From Clostridiales bacterium UBA3678 (GTDB taxonomy: Bacteria > Bacillota > Clostridia > TANB77 > CAG-508), in NCBI GenBank assembly GCA_002372935.1, contig DFJF01000005.1, forward strand, positions 100,754 to 164,753: 64,000 nucleotides of DNA, in the 5' to 3' direction. The translations under genes were made by a program, and so were the position numbers. A model generated the notes under the pieces. That model did not search any database, was not told where the DNA came from, and saw only the letters and a list, made by a program, of their open reading frames with translations. This document shows positions 15,069 to 34,180 of this stretch, piece by piece (positions within the stretch are counted from its first letter, which is position 1; each line of letters starts with the position of its first letter).

Positions 15069-15144
15069 GGGGACGGTTCTTTTTAAAAAAGGGACGGTTC
15101 TTTTTTGAAAGAGAACCGTCCCTTTTTTAAAAAGAACCGTCCCC
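15069..15144. repeat. REP-like array A: 2 forward + 2 reverse GGGGACGGTTC units forming a 76-bp near-perfect palindrome
   Basis: GGGGACGGTTCTTTTTAAAAAAGGGACGGTTC..GAACCGTCCCTTTTTTAAAAAGAACCGTCCCC. The arms are 33 bp and perfect. The array lies between the mscS stop and the polA start. Confidence 0.9.
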
Positions 15145-18489: not shown

Positions 18490-19263
18490 TTACTTATACA
18501 GTCTCTTTATATGATTTATCGCACTTTTTTCCAATCTCGAAACCTGAGCTTGAGAGATGCCAATCTCTTCTGCCACCTCCATTTGTGTCCTCCCATCAAA
18601 AAATCTTTTAGCTAAAATCTCTCTTTCCTTATCATTAAGTTTTTTCATAGACTGCTTAATAGTTAAATTTTCAGCCCATAACTCATCAGAATTTTTATCA
18701 TCTTTTACTTGATCCATAATATAAATATTTTCTGTTCCATCATTATAAATAGGTTCCTGCAAAGAAATTGGAATTTGAATAGCATCTAAACTAAAAGCAA
18801 TATCTTCTGGAGTAGAATCCAAACTTTTTGCAATCTCTTCAATTGTTGGTTCTTTTCCATTTTGTTTGGTCAGTCTTTCTTTACATTGCATAACTTTATA
18901 TGCAAGATCTCTTATTGAGCGACTAACCCTTATACTATTATTATCTCTCAAATATCTTCTTATTTCACCTATAATCATAGGTACAGCATACGTAGAAAAC
19001 TGCACATTTTGACTAATATCAAAATTATCTATAGCTTTAATCAAACCTACACAACCAATCTGAAACAAATCATCTGCATTTTCGCCTCTACCATAAAATC
19101 TTTGAATTACACTAAGCACTAATCTCAAATTTCCATTTATAAATTTATTTCTTGCTTCATCATCTCCGTTTTTTATCTTATTTAATAGTTCTTCCTTCTC
19201 TTCCTTAGAAAGTATTGGCAACTTCGAGGTATTCACACCACATATTTCAACTTTATTTAGCAA
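18490..19263 (-). CDS. sigG: sporulation sigma factor SigG (forespore, late)
   Basis: NKVEICGVNTSKLPILSKEE..NGNLRLVLSVIQRF..FSTYAVPMIIGEIRRYLRDNN.IRVSRS..ISQAQVSRLEK closely follows B. subtilis SigG as I remember it. The start is placed at the TTG at 19263, 8 nt after AAGGAGG. Confidence 0.85.
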   Translation of the reverse strand: MLNKVEICGVNTSKLPILSKEEKEELLNKIKNGDDEARNKFINGNLRLVLSVIQRFYGRGENADDLFQIGCVGLIKAIDNFDISQNVQFSTYAVPMIIGEIRRYLRDNNSIRVSRSIRDLAYKVMQCKERLTKQNGKEPTIEEIAKSLDSTPEDIAFSLDAIQIPISLQEPIYNDGTENIYIMDQVKDDKNSDELWAENLTIKQSMKKLNDKEREILAKRFFDGRTQMEVAEEIGISQAQVSRLEKSAINHIKRLYK

Positions 19264-19298
19264 AAGAAAAACCTCCTTAATCAAGAAATATTTGATAA

Positions 19299-19345: not shown

Positions 19346-19420
19346 GGGGACGGTTCTTTTTAAGAAGGGGACGGTTCTTTTTAAAAAAAGAACCGTCCCC
19401 TTCTTAAAAAGAACCGTCCC
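19346..19420. repeat. REP-like array B: 2 forward + 2 reverse units, 74-bp perfect palindrome
   Basis: 19347-19382 is the exact reverse complement of 19385-19420 (36-bp arms with centre AA). The array lies between the glmS stop and the sigG promoter region. Confidence 0.9.
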
Positions 19421-22767: not shown

Positions 22768-22842
22768 GGGGACGGTTCTTTTTTGAAAGGGGACGGTTCT
22801 TTTTCAAAAGGGGACGGTTCTTTTTCAAAAAAGAACCGTCCC
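22768..22842. repeat. REP-like array C: 3 forward + 1 reverse unit
   Basis: GGGGACGGTTC occurs at 22768, 22789 and 22810 (21-bp phase). GAACCGTCCC occurs at 22833. The array overlaps the last codons of the radical SAM gene. Confidence 0.9.
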
Positions 22843-23793
22843 TGTTTGAAAGTACATTCCCTGTCTCAAATCTTGTTCTTCCATAATTTTATTGAATCTG
22901 TTCATAACAATCTTTTTATGTGCATTCCATTCAGGTGCAATTAAGATATCTTTTGGAGCATCAGCACAAATTCTATGTACAACAATCTGTGGTTTTATAT
23001 GAGTTATAACATAAATTAAATCATCAAGATATTCGTCTAAACTTAAAGGTATATATTGTCCATTCTCATACATTTCACACAACTTAGTATTTTTTACAAC
23101 ATAAGTTGAATGAATTTTGATTCCATCAATATCTAATTTATTTATTAAATTTACTGTATCCTTAATTTGCTCTGGAACACCTTTTTTCCTATCTTCTTCC
23201 GGCAATCCACACATAATATGCACAATAATATCTATATTATATTTATTTAAAATTTCTACAGCTTTTATAAATTCCTCAGTCGAATATCCTCTATTTATAA
23301 TTTTTCCAATTTCATTATCAGAAGTTTGTAATCCAAGCTCAACACACACATAATATTTATTTTTATATGATGAAATAAGGCTTGCAATTTCATCATTTAT
23401 ACAATCAGGTCTTGTAGCTATTGATATTCCAACAATTCTTTCATCTATTAAAGCACTATCATATTTGCTTTTTAAATTCTGAATTGTATCATAAGTATTA
23501 GAAAAATTTTGAAAATATACAATAAATTTATTTGCCCTTTTGGCTCTATATGAAGCAAAATATTCCTTTACTTGATTTTCTATGCCATGTCCAATTAGGT
23601 CTACTGAATCTTTCTCGATTCCATGTCCGATCAATTCTCCAGAACCTTTCTCGCTGCAAAAAATGCAACCTCGATTTCCACATCTTCCATCTCTATTTGG
23701 ACAAGTAAATCCACCATCAATACAGATTTTTAAGGTTCTTTCTCCAAATTTTTTTTTATAATATGTGTTTAAACGATTATATCTTTCTTCCAT
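22825..23793 (-). CDS. TIGR01212-family radical SAM protein
   Basis: DGGFTCPNRDGRCGNRGCIFC cluster followed by the TIGR01212-like body. The C-terminal ..QTGTVLF* is encoded by repeat array C. Confidence 0.8.
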   Translation of the reverse strand: MEERYNRLNTYYKKKFGERTLKICIDGGFTCPNRDGRCGNRGCIFCSEKGSGELIGHGIEKDSVDLIGHGIENQVKEYFASYRAKRANKFIVYFQNFSNTYDTIQNLKSKYDSALIDERIVGISIATRPDCINDEIASLISSYKNKYYVCVELGLQTSDNEIGKIINRGYSTEEFIKAVEILNKYNIDIIVHIMCGLPEEDRKKGVPEQIKDTVNLINKLDIDGIKIHSTYVVKNTKLCEMYENGQYIPLSLDEYLDDLIYVITHIKPQIVVHRICADAPKDILIAPEWNAHKKIVMNRFNKIMEEQDLRQGMYFQTGTVLF

Positions 23794-23801
23794 TTTAGTA
23801 T

Positions 23802-23860
23802 GGCTCCCCTTTCATTTTTCAAAAAAGGGCCATCCCTCTATGAAAGAAGAACCGTCCCTC
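23802..23860. repeat. REP-like array D (one good and two degenerate reverse units)
   Basis: GAACCGTCCCTC occurs at 23849. Degenerate copies are GGGCCATCCCTC at 23827 and GGCTCCCC at 23802, each followed by a TTTCA/TTTGAAAA linker. Confidence 0.6.
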
Positions 23861-23874
23861 TTTGAAAATAGAAA

Positions 23875-26457
23875 TTATTCTGTATCTATATTTGTCAAAT
23901 TTTCTGAAGTATTTGTCTTAATACTTGCATTTTCTGAATTTTCATTTGTACCTGTGTTTGTATTTCGAGCATTATTAGTATTATTATTTGTGTTTATATT
24001 CGTATTTGTATTATTTCGAGAATCATTAATACTCGTGTTTGACGAATTTTGCGTATTATTATTTGTATTTGTCGAATTTCGAACATTATTATTTGTTGTA
24101 TTAGTATTGGTTGTATTTTGAGAATTATTTGTATTTGTATTTATATTTGTAGTATTTTGAGAATTATTTGTATATGTATTCGTACTTGTTGAATTTTGCA
24201 AATGATTTTCGCTCCTATTAATATTCGTATTTGTACTTGTAGATTTTTGGGAATTTGAATTTGATGAGCTTCCAAATCCAAATAAATTTTTTATTTTGTC
24301 TATAATTCCCTCATTTGTAGCATCATTTACTTCGCTTCCTGAATGTGTATTACAATAAGCAGGCAATGTTCCTTTTAAATAATACTCTGTATATGTATCT
24401 TTACATCCACTTCTAGCTCTCATTCCACTTTCTTTGCAAACAGTGCATGCAATAACTCCAGATGGAATCTCAAATTTAGAATCATTTTTATTTTTATGAA
24501 TGTCTTTCATGACATTTGCCCAAATATATCCTGCTGGATTTTTTCTATTAAATTCTACTGTTTCATTTTGGTCATATCCAAACCAAGCTACAGCTGTATA
24601 ATAGTTTGTGAATCCACATAGCCATCTATCATAGTTTTCATCAGATGTTCCAGTTTTAGCTGCAACATCTATTCCTGAAATTTTGCAATATGTTGCTGTT
24701 CCATTAACTCCAAGCACTGGTTGCTCTAAAAGGCTTTTTAAAATATATGCAACTTGTTTTGAAACTACTCTTTTCTTCTTTTGAGAGGTTTTCATTAATA
24801 CATTTCCATCTTTTTCTACGATTTTAGTATAAAATGTTGGTTCAATGTATACTCCATCATTTGCCATTGTATTATATGCTCCAGCCATTTCTAATGGACT
24901 AATTCCTTTTTCCAAAGCTCCTAAAGATAGCCCAAGTGATTCATCTCCTTCTGTAAGAGTAGTAATTCCTATACTTTCCAAGAACTTCTTTGATTTTTTA
25001 GGAGTAATCTCTTTTAGCATCCTGACAAATGGAATATTTTGTGATGATTCAACTGCTCTCCTTACTGTGATTTTCCCTAGTTCACTGTCATAATCTGTAG
25101 GTGCAAAACCTGGCTCAAATTCTTCTACAGTATCATCATATATAGTAGAAGCAGTAAAAATCTTATCTGAAATTCCTGGAAGTAACACAGAAAGAGGCTT
25201 TAATGAAGATCCTGTTTGTCTTGTGCTTTGTGTTGCTCTATTTAAAGATCTAGATTCTGTCTTTTCTCCTAATCCTCCAACACATCCCAAAACATATCCT
25301 GTGTTAGGCTCCATTACAACCATCGCAGCCTGAGATGTAGCACCTGCATTTACTTTAGACTCTAATATATATGTTTTTTTCTTACATTCTGTTTCTATAC
25401 TTTCTTGCACATTCAAATCTTCTGTACTGTATATTTTAGATCCAGATAAATATAAAAAATTTGTTGCAAAATCTTCTGAAATATTATATTTATCCTCTAT
25501 GTCTGATAAAACTTCATTTATAACAGCATCTGTATGATATGAATATACTGCATTTCCTGAATCCACATTTCCTTTTTTAAACTTCAGCCCAGCATCTACT
25601 TCTTGTACAGCATCATTATATTTAGTCTCTGAAATATATCCAAGTTCTTTCATTTTTGATAATACAGTTTTTGTTCTATTATTAACCTTTTCTTTGCTTT
25701 CTTCTGTCTCATCAAAAGGCTTATATGAAGCTGGCGAATTGTTTATTCCTGCTAAAAATGCACACTCTGCAATGCTCAAATCCTTAACATCCTTATCAAA
25801 ATAATATTTCGAACCAGCACCAACTCCATAAAGATTTGGTCCAACATAAATTATATTTAAATAATATTCCAAAATATCATCTTTAGACAATGAATTATCT
25901 AATGTAAAAGCTTTATACCATTCTCCTATCTTCCTAGAAATTTTTTTATCAGAATCTCCAGTTATATTTTTTACAAGTTGCTGTGTTATTGTACTTCCAC
26001 CAAAAGATGATTTTCCAAAATGAATAATATAGCTGAAAATTGCACCACCAGTTCTTCTTATATCAACTCCATGATGTTTATAAAACCTTTGATCTTCTAT
26101 AGAAATATATGCATTTTTTAAATATTCTGGCATTTCACTTGAAGATACATAAATTCTTTTTTTCTCTTCTCCTATCTCAGCAATCTGTTTTCCGTCACTA
26201 TTCAATACGACAGAGTCTTGAACATTTTGCATATTCTTAGCTAATTTTAGCCATTTGTTTGTAAAAATAATTAACTCTATAATTAAAAAAGTCACAATCA
26301 TAATAATCATTAATATAGAAATCCTTCTTTTTTTGCTTTTGACTTTTTTATGTTTATCATTTTTTTGAAAGCGTGTCTTTTTAAAGGCTTTTGGTACAAA
26401 TTCATCACTATCATTCAATTCATCATCATTATTTTTTATTTTTTTGCCACTTTTCAT
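23875..26457 (-). CDS. class A penicillin-binding protein (PBP1A-type transglycosylase/transpeptidase) with low-complexity C-terminal tail
   Basis: GT51 motifs EDQRFYKHHGVD and GGSTITQQLVKN, and transpeptidase motifs SSLKP and KTGTS. There is an N-terminal TM anchor. Confidence 0.9.
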   Translation of the reverse strand: MKSGKKIKNNDDELNDSDEFVPKAFKKTRFQKNDKHKKVKSKKRRISILMIIMIVTFLIIELIIFTNKWLKLAKNMQNVQDSVVLNSDGKQIAEIGEEKKRIYVSSSEMPEYLKNAYISIEDQRFYKHHGVDIRRTGGAIFSYIIHFGKSSFGGSTITQQLVKNITGDSDKKISRKIGEWYKAFTLDNSLSKDDILEYYLNIIYVGPNLYGVGAGSKYYFDKDVKDLSIAECAFLAGINNSPASYKPFDETEESKEKVNNRTKTVLSKMKELGYISETKYNDAVQEVDAGLKFKKGNVDSGNAVYSYHTDAVINEVLSDIEDKYNISEDFATNFLYLSGSKIYSTEDLNVQESIETECKKKTYILESKVNAGATSQAAMVVMEPNTGYVLGCVGGLGEKTESRSLNRATQSTRQTGSSLKPLSVLLPGISDKIFTASTIYDDTVEEFEPGFAPTDYDSELGKITVRRAVESSQNIPFVRMLKEITPKKSKKFLESIGITTLTEGDESLGLSLGALEKGISPLEMAGAYNTMANDGVYIEPTFYTKIVEKDGNVLMKTSQKKKRVVSKQVAYILKSLLEQPVLGVNGTATYCKISGIDVAAKTGTSDENYDRWLCGFTNYYTAVAWFGYDQNETVEFNRKNPAGYIWANVMKDIHKNKNDSKFEIPSGVIACTVCKESGMRARSGCKDTYTEYYLKGTLPAYCNTHSGSEVNDATNEGIIDKIKNLFGFGSSSNSNSQKSTSTNTNINRSENHLQNSTSTNTYTNNSQNTTNINTNTNNSQNTTNTNTTNNNVRNSTNTNNNTQNSSNTSINDSRNNTNTNINTNNNTNNARNTNTGTNENSENASIKTNTSENLTNIDTE
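23878..24260. repeat. degenerate short tandem repeats encoding the N/T/S-rich PBP1A tail
   Basis: Reiterated TATT(T/A)GT(A/G)TT-type units translate to NTNTNN(S/T)QN.. over roughly 125 aa. Confidence 0.7.
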
Positions 26458-26487: not shown

Positions 26488-26560
26488 GAGAACCATTAAA
26501 AACAGATCTTTTTTGATACTTTTTTTAATATCTGTCCTATCTTCAAAGAAGAACTGTCCC
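26488..26560. repeat. REP-like array E (degenerate)
   Basis: GAACTGTCCC at 26551 has one mismatch. Also present are ATCTGTCC at 26529, ACAGATC at 26502 (the GGGACAGATC variant also seen at array H) and GAACCAT at 26490. Confidence 0.5.
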
Positions 26561-26573
26561 ATTTTAAATGTAT

Positions 26574-28520
26574 TTATAGTTCGTCCTCTACTATCATTTT
26601 ATCTAAATCTTTAACAAATCCCTTCAATATAACAGTTTTTATAGTTGTATCTTTTCCTTTTAAATAGTCTGAAATCATACGCTTTAAAGAACTCATATTT
26701 TTTTGCTCTTCTTTTACAACTTCTGGATGTAACTTTGCTCTTTTTAGCATTCTTTCTCTAATAATTACTATATCTTCATTTGTAGCACAAGTAAGTCTCT
26801 GTAACATTTGATATGGATCAAAATATTTGAATATTGGAATATCCATGCATTCCTTATCAAATCTTTCATAGAATTGTTCCATTTTCATTGGAATATTTTT
26901 AAATACCTCTTCTGCTTTTATTTCATATTCTTTTTCTAATAATTCATCATTTAAATCATTAAAACTACTGATTACTTCATTTATATCATCAGATGAATTA
27001 TAAATTGAAATTTTTTCTAGCTCTTCGCGAACATTTGGAAAATATCTTGAATGACTCGCAGCTATATTCATTCCAGTAATAAAGTCTTCTTTTAAATCTT
27101 TTAGGTCATAACTAATTAAATAATTATTGTAAAAATAGATATAATATACAAACAATTTTGCAATATCTATAAGCTCTAACTTGCCTTTTTTGACATCATC
27201 AAGAGCCTCATATACTGTGTCAAAAAACTTATCATCTGGAATTTTCCAATATTCTTCAACTAAAATTCTCTTATATGCAGGAATATTTCTTTCTCCACTT
27301 GATGTCATTTCTGCATCTTCCATATCACGCTTGAAAATTTTCATATCGAAAATTCTAGTTCTAATATAAAATTCTATGAATTTAAAAAATCTATATTCTG
27401 TTTTAAAATTATAATAATAATTTCCATCAAATTCTTTTATATAAAATTGTCTATTATCACTTAAAACCCTTGAAGAAACTAAGATTGATTTATATTCTTC
27501 ATTATCTTCTATATTTTTGAATTTTTCCTTAGTAATTTTTCCAGCTTTTATCTCAAATGATGCAGCTATAGTAAAAATAAGCATTGTTTGCATAACAATT
27601 TTATTAGTATTTGGATAAAATTTATCTGTCATTTCATAAATCTTTTTAAAATCATTTAAAGATTGTTTTAAAATACGCAAGTTCCTTGTTCCGCTTCTCT
27701 TAAATGTTGACATAATCAAATTAGAATTTTCTCTTAAAAATTTGACTAATCCTGGATTTGACTCATATCTCATTAGAATTCCATTTATAATATAGTCAAA
27801 TTTAGGTGCATATTCAAAAGTCTCTCCTATTAATTTTTCCTTAATTCTCTCATAATCATTTGTTCTTTCAAAAACAGTTTCTATTCTATCTTTAATTTTT
27901 TCAATCATAGGTAAATCATTATTATTAAGTTCACCTTGCTTGTCCAAAAGATAAGTTGCTATAAAAGTCTTCATTTCAAGATTTTCACTCTTCATCTTTG
28001 TAGCTAATTCTTTTTCATTACAGATGATGATTGTCTTCATGTGATCATGTTCAACGAAATTGTTGATATAGCCCAAAATGTCTATAACATCAACATTTGC
28101 TCTTTCTAAATCATCAAAACATAAAACCTTGTCATTAATAGCAAAAAACTCATCATAATCAATCTTCTCCCCATTTTGTGCCACACCGAAAAAATTCGCC
28201 ATATCAAGGCTAGTTTTAGCATATTCTGGAATTGCTGTTTGTTTATGTGTTGACATATATCTTCTCAAACTTTTATCCATTAGTTGGGTAGTCTCAATAA
28301 ATATTTTCTTACTAATTTCTTCCAAATTTGAAATACCATATAGAGACATATAAATAGTCTTATATTTTCTTCCATTTAGTGTAAGTGATTCGATTTTTGT
28401 TTTAATTTGATTATTCCAGAAATATGTTTTTCCTGCACCCCATTCACCATTAATCATAATAGCATAATCTGTATAATCTGATCTTACATAATCTAAAACA
28501 CTTTCTAATAAATCATCCAT
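26574..28520 (-). CDS. KAP-family P-loop NTPase
   Basis: Walker A INGEWGAGKTYFW and Walker B-like VLCFDDLERA, followed by a long alpha-helical C-terminal region. I prefer the ATG at 28520 (RBS GAGGAATATT) over the GTG at 28532. Confidence 0.75.
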   Translation of the reverse strand: MDDLLESVLDYVRSDYTDYAIMINGEWGAGKTYFWNNQIKTKIESLTLNGRKYKTIYMSLYGISNLEEISKKIFIETTQLMDKSLRRYMSTHKQTAIPEYAKTSLDMANFFGVAQNGEKIDYDEFFAINDKVLCFDDLERANVDVIDILGYINNFVEHDHMKTIIICNEKELATKMKSENLEMKTFIATYLLDKQGELNNNDLPMIEKIKDRIETVFERTNDYERIKEKLIGETFEYAPKFDYIINGILMRYESNPGLVKFLRENSNLIMSTFKRSGTRNLRILKQSLNDFKKIYEMTDKFYPNTNKIVMQTMLIFTIAASFEIKAGKITKEKFKNIEDNEEYKSILVSSRVLSDNRQFYIKEFDGNYYYNFKTEYRFFKFIEFYIRTRIFDMKIFKRDMEDAEMTSSGERNIPAYKRILVEEYWKIPDDKFFDTVYEALDDVKKGKLELIDIAKLFVYYIYFYNNYLISYDLKDLKEDFITGMNIAASHSRYFPNVREELEKISIYNSSDDINEVISSFNDLNDELLEKEYEIKAEEVFKNIPMKMEQFYERFDKECMDIPIFKYFDPYQMLQRLTCATNEDIVIIRERMLKRAKLHPEVVKEEQKNMSSLKRMISDYLKGKDTTIKTVILKGFVKDLDKMIVEDEL

Positions 28521-28547
28521 AATATTCCTCACTTTCTTCTTTCAAAA

Positions 28548-28643
28548 GGGGACGGTTCTTTTTTGAAAGAGAACCGTCCCCTTTCAAAAAAGAACCGTCC
28601 CCTTCTGAAAGAGAACCGTCCCCTTTTGAAAAAGAACCGTCCC
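28548..28643. repeat. REP-like array F: 1 forward + 4 reverse units
   Basis: GGGGACGGTTC occurs at 28548. GAACCGTCCC(C) occurs at 28571, 28592, 28613 and 28634 (21-bp phase). Confidence 0.9.
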
Positions 28644-29414: not shown

Positions 29415-31676
29415 TCAATTATTTTCACTATATAAAATTAATTTGTATTTTAGCCCCGTATTTCTTTTTTTACTGTCAACATTATTTATCATAAATTCAA
29501 TTGTGTTTTTTTCTCCAATTATAATCAAAAGCTGCTTGGCTCTAGTAATTCCTGTATATAGTAAATTTCTAGTTAGAAGAATTGGTGCTGTTCTAGGTAT
29601 GCACATAATAACAACATCATATTCACTACCTTGTGCTTTATGGATCGTAACTGCATAACTATGTTCAATTTGCTCCAAGTTTGTGTATTCATATACTGCA
29701 ACTTTGCCATCATCAAATTTTATTGTAACACTTTTTTCTCTTTCGCTAATACTCAAAATAGTGCCTATTTCTCCATTAAACACTCCTGTACCATATTCCA
29801 CTTTCTCCTCTTTCTTAAGATTTTCCTTCTCCCAAGTAATATCATAATTATTCTTTACTTGCATTATTCTATCTCCAACTCTGAAAATTACACCATTTGC
29901 CTTTTTCTCATCTCTTAATTTATCTTCTGGATTTAATGCATTTTGCAAATATTTATTTAGTTCTTTTGTCCCAAGCATTCCTTTTTTTGTTGGAGTCAAA
30001 ATTTGAATATTCTTAAAAAAATCATAATTACCATAATTTTGAAGTCTTCCTGTGCATAATGAAATAATTTGATATAATATTTTTTCCTGATTTCTCTCAT
30101 CTATGACAAAAAAATCTTTTTTAGAATCATCTGATAGCTCATTTTTTGGCAAAAAATATTTTCCATCATTTACTCTATGTGCGTTCACAACGATTTGGCT
30201 CTTGGCAGCTTGTCTAAATACTTTGTCTAAATGAATAGTTGTGACTGTCTCTGATTCGATTAAATCTTTTAGAACAATTCCAGGTCCTACAGATGGCAAT
30301 TGATCACTATCTCCAACTAAAATCAATTTTGTCCCTTTATATATTGAACATAATAAATAATTCATCAAAAACATGTCAACCATTGACATTTCATCAACAA
30401 TTATTAAATCCGCATCAATCGGAGTTCCCTGGTATTCTTGCTGTTTATTTAACAAAATATCATCATCAAACTTTCCGATTTCTAAAAGTCTATGCAGAGT
30501 GCTTGCTTCTTCTCCTGTGGTCTCTGTAATTCTTTTTGCTGCTCTACCAGTTGGTGCACATAATACGACCTTGTTTCCCTGCTTTTCATAAATCTGTATT
30601 ATAGACTTGATTATTGTAGTTTTTCCAGTACCAGGTCCTCCTGTTATAATTGTAACATTATGATCATTAACGGCTTCTATCGCTTCTTTTTGCTTATCTG
30701 ACAAATTTATATCATCAATTATTTCAATTTTGCCTAATTCTTTATTTATATTTTTTATAAATTTAAAATTCTTTGCATTATCCAGAGATAAAATTTTTTT
30801 TGCAATACTTTCTTCTGTTTTATAAAAAATTGCCAAATATACCCATATATCTCCATTTTCTCTTGTTTCTTCATATATCTCACCTGAAGCCTTTAGATTA
30901 ATATAACTATCTTCTATAAAATCTCCGGAAACTCCTATAAGAGTTCTTACAAACTCTATTAAATTTTCTTTAAGTGTGCAACAATGCCCATTATATGTAA
31001 TTCTTATTAATGAATATTTAATTGCACTTCTCACTCTTTTATCATTATTTTCTTCCATGCCCAAATCCATAGCCATTTTATCTATCTGTTTAAAATCAAC
31101 GCCTCTTGCAATATCTATTAAAATATATGGATTCGCTTCAATTTGCTCAATCGCATTAATCCCAAGCTCATCATAAACTTTTTTAGAATTCTCTGCACCT
31201 ATTCCAAACTTTTCTAAAAATCCCACAATCTGCCATACTTCCCAGTGCTCAACAAAACTTGCTGAAATCTCTAAAGCCTTTTCTTTTGTAATGCCTCTTA
31301 TCTGAGACAACTTCAAAGGCTGAAATTTAATAACACTTATCGTATCTTCTCCAAAAGTTCCAACAATTTTATGTGCAGTTGCTGGTCCAACTCCTTTAAT
31401 CATACCATTTCCAATATATCCTTCTAAAGCATCTAAAGTCTGTGGCATGAGCTTTTCAAAAGTATCAACCTTAAATTGCTTACCATACTCTCTATGTTTC
31501 ACAAATCTTCCAATAACTTTAAGCTCATCCCCCTCTACAACAAAAGGCAAATACCCAACTATAGTTATTAAATTATCTTCTTTTCCATCAATTTTATCAA
31601 CATACATTTCAGCTATTGTATAACTATTTACATCATTTTGATAAATTATTGCAGTAATTTCTCCTGTAAGTTTCAA
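29415..31676 (-). CDS. recD2: ATP-dependent RecD-like DNA helicase (RecD2, SF1B)
   Basis: 753 aa with an N-terminal OB/HhH region, Walker A ITGGPGTGKTT, DEMSMVD, and the C-terminal AVTIHKAQGSE. Confidence 0.9.
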   Translation of the reverse strand: MKLTGEITAIIYQNDVNSYTIAEMYVDKIDGKEDNLITIVGYLPFVVEGDELKVIGRFVKHREYGKQFKVDTFEKLMPQTLDALEGYIGNGMIKGVGPATAHKIVGTFGEDTISVIKFQPLKLSQIRGITKEKALEISASFVEHWEVWQIVGFLEKFGIGAENSKKVYDELGINAIEQIEANPYILIDIARGVDFKQIDKMAMDLGMEENNDKRVRSAIKYSLIRITYNGHCCTLKENLIEFVRTLIGVSGDFIEDSYINLKASGEIYEETRENGDIWVYLAIFYKTEESIAKKILSLDNAKNFKFIKNINKELGKIEIIDDINLSDKQKEAIEAVNDHNVTIITGGPGTGKTTIIKSIIQIYEKQGNKVVLCAPTGRAAKRITETTGEEASTLHRLLEIGKFDDDILLNKQQEYQGTPIDADLIIVDEMSMVDMFLMNYLLCSIYKGTKLILVGDSDQLPSVGPGIVLKDLIESETVTTIHLDKVFRQAAKSQIVVNAHRVNDGKYFLPKNELSDDSKKDFFVIDERNQEKILYQIISLCTGRLQNYGNYDFFKNIQILTPTKKGMLGTKELNKYLQNALNPEDKLRDEKKANGVIFRVGDRIMQVKNNYDITWEKENLKKEEKVEYGTGVFNGEIGTILSISEREKSVTIKFDDGKVAVYEYTNLEQIEHSYAVTIHKAQGSEYDVVIMCIPRTAPILLTRNLLYTGITRAKQLLIIIGEKNTIEFMINNVDSKKRNTGLKYKLILYSENN

Positions 31677-31695
31677 TTTTTGCTCCTTTCAAAGA

Positions 31696-31810
31696 GGGAC
31701 GGTTCTCTTTCAAAAAGGGACGGTTCTTTTTTGAAAGGGGACGGTTCTTTTTTGAAGGGGGACGGTTCTCTTTCAAAAGGGGACGGTTCTTTTTTGAAGG
31801 GGGACGGTTC
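31696..31810. repeat. REP-like array G: six head-to-tail forward units at exact 21-bp spacing
   Basis: The A of GACGGTTC falls at 31699, 31720, 31741, 31762, 31783 and 31804. The linkers are either TCTTTCAAAA or TTTTTTGAA(A). Confidence 0.95.
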
Positions 31811-31922
31811 TTTAAATAAAAATTGAAACTAATACACCAATTTTAAAGTAATATTAATTTTTCATTTTTATAAAAGATTAAATCCCCTCTATCTCAAAGA
31901 ATGTATCTCTCTTTTTATTAAA

Positions 31923-32699
31923 TTATATTTCATCAATTTTTTCTTTTATCATTTTCAAATTCCATCTGCTAATTCTTGTAACTCTTGCAATCTGACTTAA
32001 ACTAGTATATTGCATATTTTTAAAAATTTCAACTACTTTTTCTAATTCTTCATCATTAAATTTTGAGATTTCATTAATATTATTAATCTTAAATTTTTTT
32101 ACAATAAAATCTTTTAACCCTTCATCTGTAAAGTTTGTTTCCAATTCAAATTCAAGAAAATCAAATTGATTATCACTATTCTCTAGCAATGTAAATTTTT
32201 TTAAATCATCTATATTTTCATTGAAATAATGCAACAAGATATGCTTGTCAACAATTTTTTCTTTTCCTATATATTCATGATAACTGCTCCAATGGTAATC
32301 TTTGGTTTGACAAATTCCAGCTTTTTCGGGATTTTGATGTACATATCTACAGACATCTAAAAAATATTTTTGATTTTCAACACACTTACTTTTAAATCTA
32401 TCTTGAAAAAAATGACCTGAACGATTATATTTTTTGTTAAAATATGAGGTATACCTAATATTTAAGCTCTGCATAAATCTTGATAAATCTGTATCTTCTA
32501 TTTGCATCACCAAATGTACATGATTGCTCATCAAACAATATGCAAATATCTTACAAGAAAATAAATCTTTCAAATTTTCAATTTTTTTTAAATAATTTGA
32601 TTTGTCTTGGCTATCGTAAAAAATATCTTGTCCATCAATTCCTTTACACATTATATGATATATCTTACTTAAACTTAGTTTTCTAGCACTTCTTGGCAA
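31923..32699 (-). CDS. IS200-like Y1 (HUH) transposase homolog of the REP-associated (RAYT) type, with a C-terminal HTH-like extension
   Basis: HUH motif in CLMSNHVHLVMQ, GHFFQDRFKS, and the Tyr motif CRYVHQNPEKAGI. The C-terminal segment YTSLSQIARVTRISRWNLKMI looks like an HTH. Both flanks are repeat arrays. Confidence 0.75.
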   Translation of the reverse strand: MPRSARKLSLSKIYHIMCKGIDGQDIFYDSQDKSNYLKKIENLKDLFSCKIFAYCLMSNHVHLVMQIEDTDLSRFMQSLNIRYTSYFNKKYNRSGHFFQDRFKSKCVENQKYFLDVCRYVHQNPEKAGICQTKDYHWSSYHEYIGKEKIVDKHILLHYFNENIDDLKKFTLLENSDNQFDFLEFELETNFTDEGLKDFIVKKFKINNINEISKFNDEELEKVVEIFKNMQYTSLSQIARVTRISRWNLKMIKEKIDEI

Positions 32700-32933
32700 A
32701 TAATCACATCCTTTATAAAAGAAATTTTATTCTAATTTTTTGAAATTAAAATTATTTGATTTAAATAATAATTCAGACAAAAACATTGAATAATCAAATT
32801 AAAAAACAATTTTAAATAACAATTTTAATAATTGATTCAAATAATTAAATTTATGTTAATAATTCTAGCACATTAATTTTAATTTGTCTATACTTTTTCC
32901 AAAAAATGGTATTATTTCTCTGCCTATTCTTTT

Positions 32934-33054
32934 AAAGATCTGTCCCTCTTTCAAAAAGAACCGTCCCCTTTCAAAAAAGAACCGTCCCCTTTCAAAAAAG
33001 AACCGTCCCCTTTCAAAAAAGAACCGTCCCCCTTTGAAAGAGGGACAGATCTTT
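32934..33054. repeat. REP-like array H: four reverse units at 21-bp spacing enclosed by a perfect 22-bp inverted repeat
   Basis: GAACCGTCCCC occurs at 32958, 32979, 33000 and 33021. The terminal AAAGATCTGTCCCTCTTTCAAA (32934-32955) is the exact reverse complement of TTTGAAAGAGGGACAGATCTTT (33033-33054). The right end touches the ftsZ stop codon. Confidence 0.95.
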
Positions 33055-34180
33055 ATAATCCTTTATTTTTATTTTTTCTTAAAAATGATGGGATATCTAA
33101 GTCATTTGAAGAACTGCTAAAGTCTTGGCTTGATGGTGGATTTATTTTTTTATCCCAGCTCTTCGAAACCATGTTGTCTAATCTTTTATTCACATTATTG
33201 TTTTCATTTTGATCTTCAAATCCAGTTGCTATTACTGTTATTTGTATTTCATCTTTCATATTTTCATCTATAACTGTACCAAAGATTATGTTAGCTTCTG
33301 GATCTACATTGCGTTGAACTAATTCTGCAGCTGTATTTACTTCTTGTAATCCTAAGTCTTCTCCTCCTGTAACATTTATGATTACTCCTCTTGCTCCTTC
33401 TATTGTTGTCTCTAGTAATGGACTTTGGATTGCTTGTTTTGCAGCATCTTCTGCTTTGTTTTCTCCTGATGCTCTACCTATTCCCATATGTGCCATTCCT
33501 GTATTTAGCATTATCGTTTTTACATCTGCAAAATCTAGATTTATTGCTCCTGTTACTGTAATTAAGTCTGATATACCTTGTACACCTTGTCTTAAAACAT
33601 CATCTGCCATCATAAAGGCTTCTGACATTGATGTTTTTCTGTCTATTATTTGTAAAAGTTTATCATTTGGTATAACAATTAATGTGTCTACCTTTCCTTT
33701 TAAACTTTCTATTCCGCGCTCTGCTTGTGCTAAACGTTTTTTTCCTTCAAATGTAAATGGTTTTGTAACAACACCTATTGTTAATATTCCCATTTCTTTT
33801 GCAAGTCCTGCAACTGTTGGTGCTGCGCCAGTTCCTGTTCCACCGCCCATTCCTGCTGTAACAAATACCATATCTGCACCACGTAAAACTTCTGTAATTT
33901 CTGTTTTGCTCTCTTCTGCTGATTGAGCTCCAATATCAGGATCTGCTCCTGCTCCTAGCCCTCTTGTTATTTTTTCACCTATTTGAATTTTTGTATTTGC
34001 TTTTGATTTTTGTAAAGCTTGTCTATCTGTATTAACTGCAATAAAATCTACATTTTTTATTCCCCAGTCAAGCATTCTGTTTACAGCATTGTTTCCTGCT
34101 CCGCCAACACCTATTACCTTTATTGTTGCTGTTCCATCTTTCATTGTTATATTGTTTTCATCATCAAAATCCATCATCAC
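33053..34180 (-). CDS. ftsZ: cell division protein FtsZ
   Basis: [17 protein letters not shown] and the tubulin signature [12 protein letters not shown]. Confidence 0.97.

Follow-up and report, generated by a model that had tools for sequence, protein, structure and literature searches.

A RAYT-like Y1/HUH transposase gene at a single locus between inverted arrays of its probable cognate hairpin repeat in a Clostridia genome

Introduction

A transposase-like gene that stands alone between two phased arrays of a short repeat raises the question of whether it acts on that repeat, moves as an insertion sequence (IS) or simply adjoins repeats of host origin. We addressed this question for a gene resembling those of REP-associated tyrosine transposases (RAYTs; REP, repetitive extragenic palindromic sequence) in Clostridiales bacterium UBA3678, using a 64-kb stretch of contig DFJF01000005.1 (assembly GCA_002372935.1, positions 100,754 to 164,753), the whole of which is referred to here as the window. 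A sequence-only reading had described the gene and its motifs, six repeat units on its 3' side, four on its 5' side and a 22-bp inverted repeat closing the latter, and all of these were found where it had placed them. With a probability of about 0.7, we consider the locus to be a REPtron or TIRtron (TIR, terminal inverted repeat), meaning a fixed class-2 Y1/HUH gene of the TIR-associated tyrosine transposase (TIRYT) or subclass 2.1 type that is bracketed by inverted arrays of its cognate repeat. This reading draws on the family, catalytic residues and fold of the enzyme, the anatomy of the repeat, its association with the gene, covariation in its hairpin, polymorphism between strains and the single locus of the gene, all of which were observed directly.

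Family, catalytic residues and fold of the enzyme

The gene and its coding features are as follows.

31923..32699, minus strand: RAYT-like gene, an open reading frame (ORF) of 258 aa for a predicted class-2 Y1/HUH enzyme of TIRYT type
32502..32528, minus strand: codons of the HUH motif SNHVHLVMQ, residues 58-66, including H60 and H62
32313..32348, minus strand: codons of the Tyr motif RYVHQNPEKAGI, residues 118-129, with the catalytic Y119 and the Y---NP signature
31926..32252, minus strand: codons of the C-terminal extension, about residues 150-258, all-alpha, with a helix-turn-helix (HTH)-like segment at residues ~232-255

The Pfam family Y1_Tnp (PF01797) matched residues 13-123 with 60.3 bits (2.5e-16; cutoff 23), and it also matched all 22 homologues that we aligned (47-64% identity). 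The best NCBIfam model by far was REP_Tyr_transpos (NF047646) with 69.8 bits, whereas the IS200 equivalog reached 16.5 bits against a cutoff of 55. Residues N59, H60, H62, Y119, N123 and P124 were invariant in the alignment (n=22), so that the class-2 signature Y---NP is present as Y119-V-H-Q-N123-P124 with its Y, N and P invariant. A serine motif follows the tyrosine, in which Y135, W137 and S139 were invariant and S138 was at least 90% conserved. Invariance of the HUH and Tyr residues argues for retained catalysis.

An AlphaFold2 model built on the same alignment had a mean predicted local distance difference test (pLDDT) score of 82, and its top Foldseek match was 4er8_A, the E. coli TnpA-REP with a REP hairpin (E 3e-8; template modelling score 0.74 on the target). 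The next matches were the IS608, IS200 and ISDra2 transposases (2vjv, 2a6m, 2f4f and 2xma; 1e-5 to 1e-4). Chain 4er8 was also the closest in the PDB by sequence and the only match at that level, albeit marginally (E 0.054, identity ~19%), and aligning the two placed the HUH motif on eHmH, the Tyr motif on dYiyiNP and the serine motif on W-p-F-S, with QxRF aligned too. Sequence searches of the PDB with full-length and C-terminal profiles gave nothing useful. These profile and model comparisons support the earlier assignment of the protein to the REP-associated (RAYT-like) class of Y1/HUH enzymes, as opposed to the IS200 transposases.

The sequence-only reading had also proposed a C-terminal extension with an HTH-like segment. 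The extension itself was borne out, as the C-terminal part is conserved in the family and ends in GTNxxQIARVxRINR with Q236 and R239 invariant; its HTH identity stayed sub-threshold in profile and model searches. Pfam gave no HTH and no Bac_DnaA_C match in the C-terminal part of the window protein, and the last 30 residues of its relatives matched HTH_23, HTH_28, Sigma70_r4_2, HTH_3 and HTH_38, all below threshold. The C-terminal 110 residues were modelled as eight helices (pLDDT 76), and a fold search with this part modelled separately returned no match at E <0.9, the weak ones being HTH or winged-helix domains. A C-terminal profile searched against 1.84 billion representative proteins yielded 229 matches, nearly all of them fragments or proteins of the same architecture; the domain is thus not identified by any other domain context.

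Flanking arrays and their recurrence beside related genes

Two arrays bracket the gene.

31687..31813, plus strand: 3' array, six head-to-tail 21-bp units, each made of GGGACGGTTC and an 11-nt T/A-rich spacer
32934..33054, minus strand: 5' array of four 21-bp units oriented like the gene, inside an inverted pair of GGGACAGATC variant units

The 10-mer GGGACGGTTC occurred in 28 exact copies in the window, with one further single-mismatch copy; dinucleotide-preserving shuffles gave a mean of 0.13, and none of 100 reached the observed count. In the 3' array, which adjoins the ribosome-binding site of recD2, GGGACGGTTC starts at 31696, 31717, 31738, 31759, 31780 and 31801 (plus strand), a spacing of exactly 21 bp. 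Its first two units carry AGGGAC, which corrects the GGGGAC of the earlier description, and Tandem Repeats Finder (TRF) resolved the array as a 63-bp (3-unit) block in 1.9 copies at 94%. As the gene lies on the minus strand, these nominally forward units are antisense to it. The units of the 5' array start at 32958, 32979, 33000 and 33021 (minus strand), again 21 bp apart, and the inverted repeat that closes it has arms at 32934-32955 and 33033-33054 that are perfect over 22 nt and 96% identical over 26 nt. In the gene's own reading direction, the locus consists of a reversed variant unit, 4-9 forward units and a forward variant unit, followed by the gene and then by six reversed units.

A scan of one genome per species confirmed 582 relatives of the gene, of which 80 loci, mostly full-length matches, were kept. 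These came from Clostridia, Syntrophomonas, Bacilli, Negativicutes, Actinobacteria, Bacteroidota, Atribacteria, Thermotogae and Treponema; the window's own species was not among them, and the nearest kept match was 51% identical. We searched for the core GGGAC[AG][GT] within 400 bp of the gene at the 70 loci with enough flanking sequence. It was present in forward orientation upstream in 59 of these loci, reversed downstream in 54 and in both arrangements in 48, with orientation counts of 87:14 upstream and 74:25 downstream. Within 1 kb of the gene on either side the core had a density of ~1 per kb, compared with 0.05-0.27 per kb beyond. Because the same core stands forward upstream and reversed downstream in 48 of the 70 loci, comparison of these sequences indicates that the flanking repeat is very probably cognate to the enzyme, as had been suspected from the window. 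No upstream/downstream asymmetry of units around homologous genes was apparent in the pooled data.

Most related loci had between one and three units on each side, at periods of ~21, 30 or 34 bp, which makes the arrays in the window unusually long. Motif variants across the family included GGGGACGG, GGGGACGT, GGGGACAG, GGGACCGG and GGTACCGGAGA; lineage-specific unit variants went with diverged proteins, and some close relatives used variants such as GGGACCGGTTC or GGGGACGTTTC. Two of the closest relatives (L014 and L046) carried a different inverted repeat, GTCACTGGTACCGGAGA or TGTACCGGGTACA, without GGGAC, which suggests that the cognate repeat switches within the family. Separately, two diverged paralogues (L019 and L037) were present on different contigs of the Syntrophomonas metagenome-assembled genome BL5_bin.17, which shows that a genome can carry more than one such gene.

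At least 120 metagenome contigs, ranging from 27 to 71% GC, likewise contained head-to-tail or inverted arrays of GGGACGGTTC units, as found with a scan pattern of two units 10-12 nt apart, so that a 21-22-bp spacing was imposed by the search. Among the contigs listed, the head-to-tail runs were up to seven units long, forward-then-reverse arrays were numerous, and a homologous gene adjoined the array in at least eight. None of the listed array contigs overlapped the window, and they are therefore uninformative on the rest of this genome.

The phasing itself, at about two helical turns per 21-bp unit, could also mean that the arrays are iteron-like double-stranded sites for the C-terminal HTH, the protein being mainly a regulator or organiser (e.g. 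in autoregulation or insulation) and its HUH activity secondary. A conserved extension ending in an HTH-like segment would suit this role, as would the promoter-like site (32890..32862) lying ~45 bp downstream of where the 5' array ends and the many arrays elsewhere that combine a ~21-22-bp spacing with non-palindromic spacers, and DNA targeting by the C-terminal HTH has been raised as a possibility (PMC6006769). We nonetheless regard this explanation as distinctly improbable, given that the HTH is sub-threshold with no significant fold match, that array periods near homologous genes vary (21, 30 and 34 bp), that the spacing in metagenomes was a product of the search pattern, that promoter-like sites occurred at chance frequency (117 vs 116.4), and that the HUH and Tyr residues are invariant.

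The repeat unit as a hairpin

Each unit is a 21-bp module with a conserved apex, GGGGACGGTTCT, and T/A-rich arms, TTTGAAAG and CTTTCAAA. The block GGGGACGGTTCT was conserved in 613 distinct instances, with G at -1 and T at +10 in 75%. Spacers occur in two nearly complementary forms, TTTTTTGAAAG and TCTTTCAAAAG, and an apex can consequently be closed by the spacers on either side of it, neighbouring units sharing arms. An imperfect hairpin can form under each apex on the G-rich strand. Direct arrays fold on this strand only, where G-T pairs are possible: the 3' array reached -22.4 kcal/mol (z -4.4) on the G-rich strand vs -12.2 kcal/mol (z -1.0) on the C-rich strand. The 5' array folded as single-stranded DNA at -29.2 kcal/mol (z -7.6).

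The hairpin was supported by units beside related genes. Sequences flanking the apex paired in one register only, with 41-52% Watson-Crick pairs over six consecutive positions compared with ~25% in other registers or with shuffled partners, and at least five of seven pairs formed in 37% of 118 gene-proximal units vs 4% in the control. For covariation we used an ungapped alignment of 88 gene-proximal units and 500 shuffles of partners. Paired cells made up 61.5%, vs 44.2 +/- 1.5% with shuffled partners (0/500 reached the observed value) and 37.6-49.5% in slid registers, and the covariation score was 0.470 vs 0.218 and 0.15-0.24, respectively. All nine stem pairs showed changes on both sides. 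Such covariation indicates that the 'terminal inverted repeats' of this class are REP-like stem-loops in which the stem is variable and the apex conserved.

Gene-less clusters in the window

Further units lie elsewhere in the window, as the sequence-only reading had recognized.

15070..15143: gene-less cluster, two forward and two reverse units, an inverted doublet like a REP doublet forming a hairpin (REPIN); near-perfect hairpin, -40.9 kcal/mol, z -10.8
19347..19420: gene-less cluster, two forward and two reverse units; hairpin, -45.0 kcal/mol, z -12.8
22769..22842: gene-less cluster, three forward units and one reverse unit; fold of -29.7 kcal/mol
23849..23858, minus strand: solo unit with an adjoining degenerate partner
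26551..26560, minus strand: degenerate solo unit GGGACAGTTC
28549..28643: gene-less cluster, one forward and four reverse units; fold of -33.7 kcal/mol, TRF 42-bp block in 2.1 copies

The gene-less clusters keep the forward-then-reverse layout of the gene's own flanks. As single-stranded DNA the inverted clusters form near-perfect hairpins (-30 to -45 kcal/mol, z -7 to -13), the 2+2, 3+1 and 1+4 arrays folding as hairpins of 30-36 bp. The final unit of the 22769 cluster overlaps the 3' end of a radical-SAM gene (22825..23793, overlap 22825..22842); the last codons and stop of that gene lie within the unit, and the C-terminus of the protein is thus encoded by the repeat.

Of the 13 intergenic gaps from 15 to 33 kb, 8 contained units, and all 38 other gaps of the window were free of them; such clustering has a probability of 1287/636,763,050 (~2e-6) for a fixed block and <1e-4 when all block positions are allowed. 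In the 64-kb window the units are thus limited to an 18-kb stretch downstream of the gene. GC skew marks the minus strand as leading over the entire window, and the units therefore follow the gene both as it is transcribed and as the region is replicated. Either a locally acting enzyme or regional history may account for the clustering seen in this one window.

A consensus scan of 14.5-33.5 kb found 17 terminator-like sites vs 4.1 expected, nearly all of them in arrays, and one of these sites closes ftsZ. The stems of the units, 10 bp long and GC-rich, lead on both strands into T runs, and the units probably serve as terminators between co-directional genes. The C-rich strand of the 3' array is weakly structured, which makes read-through into recD2 plausible.

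Other identities for the repeats were also considered. Under the criterion of 24-48-bp repeats with unique spacers of similar size, usually accompanied by cas genes, a CRISPR array was rejected, as the conserved part here is 10-11 nt, the 11-nt spacers are near-identical and no cas gene is nearby. An iteron-origin reading was considered and dropped. Rfam returned no bacterial family for 14-34 kb, only sub-threshold eukaryotic miRNA-precursor models, which are generic long hairpins.

Fixation of the gene and variation between strains

The locus is bordered by two genes.

33053..34180: ftsZ, on the gene's 5' side
29415..31676: recD2, on the gene's 3' side (NCBIfam RecD2, 786 bits)

A check of ORFs and annotation between ftsZ and recD2 found no tnpB and no gene besides the RAYT-like one, in keeping with the earlier description, and the short ORFs that run through the arrays (e.g. 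31638..31826 and 32884..33120) encode repeat peptides and are not genes. The exact protein was on record in 108 blocks of the assembly collection. We read the 23 longest contigs, and the order ftsA-ftsZ-gene-recD2-comF-KAP NTPase-PBP (penicillin-binding protein) was present in 10 of the 10 places listed; starting from ftsZ, every sufficiently long contig carried the gene, and neither an empty site nor an identical copy of the gene with its flanks was seen elsewhere in the sampled contigs. Members of the gene family were nearly absent from plasmids (29 of 72,556 records, 2 of them full-length) and phages (one record). The single locus and this near-absence are the pattern of a domesticated RAYT and not of an insertion sequence. 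As judged from sampled contigs, as distinct from a closed genome, the gene appears to be single-copy at a fixed locus.

This bears directly on the idea that the locus is an ordinary autonomous IS200/IS605-type insertion sequence with the arrays as its ends. Such an element would likewise have a Y1_Tnp domain and inverted repeats at both ends, and its genomic position would differ between species, as is seen here. We judge it very improbable, however, in light of the low score of the IS200 equivalog, the one locus without an empty site in all sampled strains, the scarcity of the family on plasmids and phages, and the occurrence of the repeats without the gene at six further sites.

Comparison of 11 strains showed that array lengths are polymorphic. 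The 5' array had 4-9 standard units, or 5-10 forward units when the proximal variant is counted, whereas the 3' array, with its heterogeneous spacers, was identical in all 11. The 22769 cluster varied from 3 to 5 units on one side, and in the 28549 cluster one strain had 2 units instead of 4; the distal clusters were reached by way of the radical-SAM protein in only 4 contigs, one of which is apparently the window's own source. One strain (L003) had cleanly lost one terminal unit, the missing sequence being exactly the 22 nt of the outer variant AGATCTGTCCCTCTTTCAAAGG. Array lengths changed in steps of 21, 42 and 63 bp, and the 42- and 63-bp TRF periods correspond to two- and three-unit block duplications. 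Metagenome contigs often end in the arrays (L224, at 132 bp after ftsZ, L096, L118, L135 and others); the repeats break short-read assemblies, and assembled array lengths may therefore be underestimates.

The same data can be read as repeats of host origin, either hairpins and terminators or arrays resembling variable-number tandem repeats, changed by slippage only, beside a Y1 gene that is an inactive or otherwise-employed relic. All strain differences were whole- or multi-unit steps in homogeneous arrays with the heterogeneous 3' array invariant, no cluster was gained or lost among strains, and terminator-like sites were enriched as given above (17 vs 4.1), all of which speaks for this explanation. 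We consider it unlikely, because the core flanks homologous genes in the same orientation at 48 of 70 loci from different phyla and is ~5-fold denser within 1 kb of the gene, because the catalytic residues are invariant across the family, and because slippage would be unable to seed clusters in separate intergenic gaps.

Comparison with known systems

TIRYT genes and the TIRtrons they form have been described as RAYT-like genes with long flanking inverted repeats sharing GGGGWSAS, the repeats forming moderately abundant families, as dimers or clusters, with some TIRs self-complementary (Di Nocera, De Gregorio, Rocco 2013, PMC3733652). The present locus likewise has a RAYT-like Y1 gene between inverted repeats with a G-rich motif. 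Its main unit, GGGGACGG, fits GGGGWSAS at 7 of 8 positions, and two relatives (L029 and L085) carry GGGGACAG, a full fit. It differs from the TIRtrons described in its long, strictly 21-bp-phased head-to-tail flanks (4-10 and 6 units) that share arms and in its host, a 27% GC member of the Clostridia; neither hairpin covariation nor variation in copy number between strains was reported in that work.

Class 2 of the TnpA-Y1 enzymes was defined by Y---NP, and its subclass 2.1, equated with the TIRYTs, by a serine motif and a C-terminal HTH (Bac_DnaA_C, HTH_23 or HTH_28); no REP-like structures were found near subclass 2.1 genes (Quentin, Siguier, Chandler, Fichant 2018, PMC6006769). The window enzyme shares with this subclass the Y---NP signature, the serine motif (W137-S138-S139) and a long C-terminal extension, together with a copy number that appears to be low and a patchy occurrence over phyla. 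In contrast to the subclass as published, the flanking units here are stem-loops with covarying stems, and in place of a Bac_DnaA_C match there are only weak generic HTH matches, in relatives. Compared feature by feature, and not with the authors' own profiles, the locus appears to fit the TIRYT/subclass 2.1 type on the features tested, except for the 7/8 fit to GGGGWSAS and the sub-threshold HTH.

The E. coli TnpA-REP cuts and rejoins REP through its tyrosine with an HUH-bound metal (PMC3479197). As in the E. coli REPtron (yafM, 4ER8), an apparently single-copy gene is flanked by its repeats, which are dispersed between genes and clustered into arrays, there called bacterial interspersed mosaic elements (BIMEs). 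E. coli REPs have GTAG at the hairpin foot and alternate in BIMEs, whereas the units here have an apical motif and form head-to-tail arrays, and the E. coli enzyme lacks the C-terminal HTH proposed for that of the window. One RAYT group also occurs in Clostridia (Bertels et al. 2017, PMC5581495). As in the REPIN-RAYT systems of Pseudomonas (PMC3116915, PMC5581495), gene-less inverted doublets are candidate mobilized units and the transposase gene appears to be single-copy, fixed within the species in the manner of a housekeeping gene, but REPINs consist of two REP hairpins and a spacer, whereas each arm here is a tandem array of variable length. A literature search for the unit sequence and its variants returned only unrelated matches.

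These comparisons do not sustain the earlier suggestion of a distinct architecture, since the class has already been described (PMC3733652, PMC6006769) and the same arrays occur in the metagenome contigs above. The arrays in the window, with 4-10 and 6 units, are the long end of a widespread pattern. What appear to be new are the apex-conserved covarying hairpin, the shared arms, the variation in array length between strains and the clustering within 18 kb downstream of the gene.

Proposed mechanism and its weighing

In a REPtron or TIRtron of this type, the enzyme would bind the hairpin form of the units on single-stranded DNA at replication forks and, by analogy with its E. coli counterpart, may cut and rejoin them via a 5'-phosphotyrosine at Y119 with a metal held by H60 and H62. 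Units would be seeded, maintained, and copied or moved in trans by an enzyme whose gene no longer moves itself, and array length would then drift through slippage or unequal recombination in steps of 21, 42 and 63 bp. The gene-less inverted arrays would be the analogues of REPINs. A more elaborate version, in which GGGGACGGTTC units are pan-phylum REP-like hairpins known by their apical motif and not by a tag at the foot, the enzyme acts preferentially near its own gene (in keeping with the 18-kb confinement of units in this window) and builds phased head-to-tail arrays by inserting units into the arms of existing ones, and the HTH lands on the 21-bp-phased double-stranded DNA, seems to us rather doubtful.

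Several observations weigh against a REPtron/TIRtron. The score of 69.8 bits for REP_Tyr_transpos lies below the curated equivalog cutoff of 80, and to our knowledge there is no biochemical evidence for any TIRYT or subclass 2.1 member. At none of the 80 related loci was ftsZ, ftsA, recD2 or comF present within 6 kb; the gene's position is thus not kept between species, which implies that the gene relocates or transfers over long times. Among the compared strains no whole cluster was gained or lost, only unit numbers changed, and as whole-unit and block steps fit slippage or unequal exchange, they do not in themselves show action of the enzyme. The units carry no GTAG tag of the kind seen at the foot of REP hairpins, their conserved GGGGACGGTTCT being at the apex. 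Finally, ~40% of units in other genomes had no stem in the register tested and some tandem arrays elsewhere have non-palindromic spacers, so the hairpin is not universal.

Neighbouring genes

The stretch from ftsZ to sigG coincides exactly with the repeat-rich zone and contains the RAYT-like gene, recD2, comF, the KAP NTPase gene, the PBP gene, the radical-SAM gene, a murA-like gene and glmS. The sigG gene (18490..19284, minus strand; NCBIfam SigG 436.7 bits, cutoff 372) lies ~14 kb downstream of ftsZ, with neither spoIIGA nor sigE in between, and its presence makes the earlier description of the host as a spore-former plausible. The gene for a KAP-family P-loop NTPase (26574..28532, minus strand; Pfam PF07693 from the contig annotation, no NCBIfam match) has the degenerate unit at 26551 on one side and the 28549-28643 cluster on the other. 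A 39/78-bp tandem repeat (~76% matches) at 24024..24209, in the 3' part of the PBP gene (23875..26457), is unrelated to the GGGACGGTTC units.

Significance

The locus is a good example of an under-studied but already described class and not a new kind of system. In practical terms, arrays of this kind break metagenome assemblies and yield spurious ORFs for repeat peptides. The locus also offers a compact set of substrates, comprising a conserved apex of 12 nt, arms of simple A/T sequence, naturally occurring arrays of 1-10 units and natural inverted doublets, which together with the natural strain variants makes binding, cleavage and copy-number dynamics directly testable. The presence of the same motif beside homologous genes, in a range that extends from Clostridia to Actinobacteria and Bacteroidota, points to a long-lived partnership of enzyme and repeat, comparable to that of the proteobacterial REPIN-RAYT systems.

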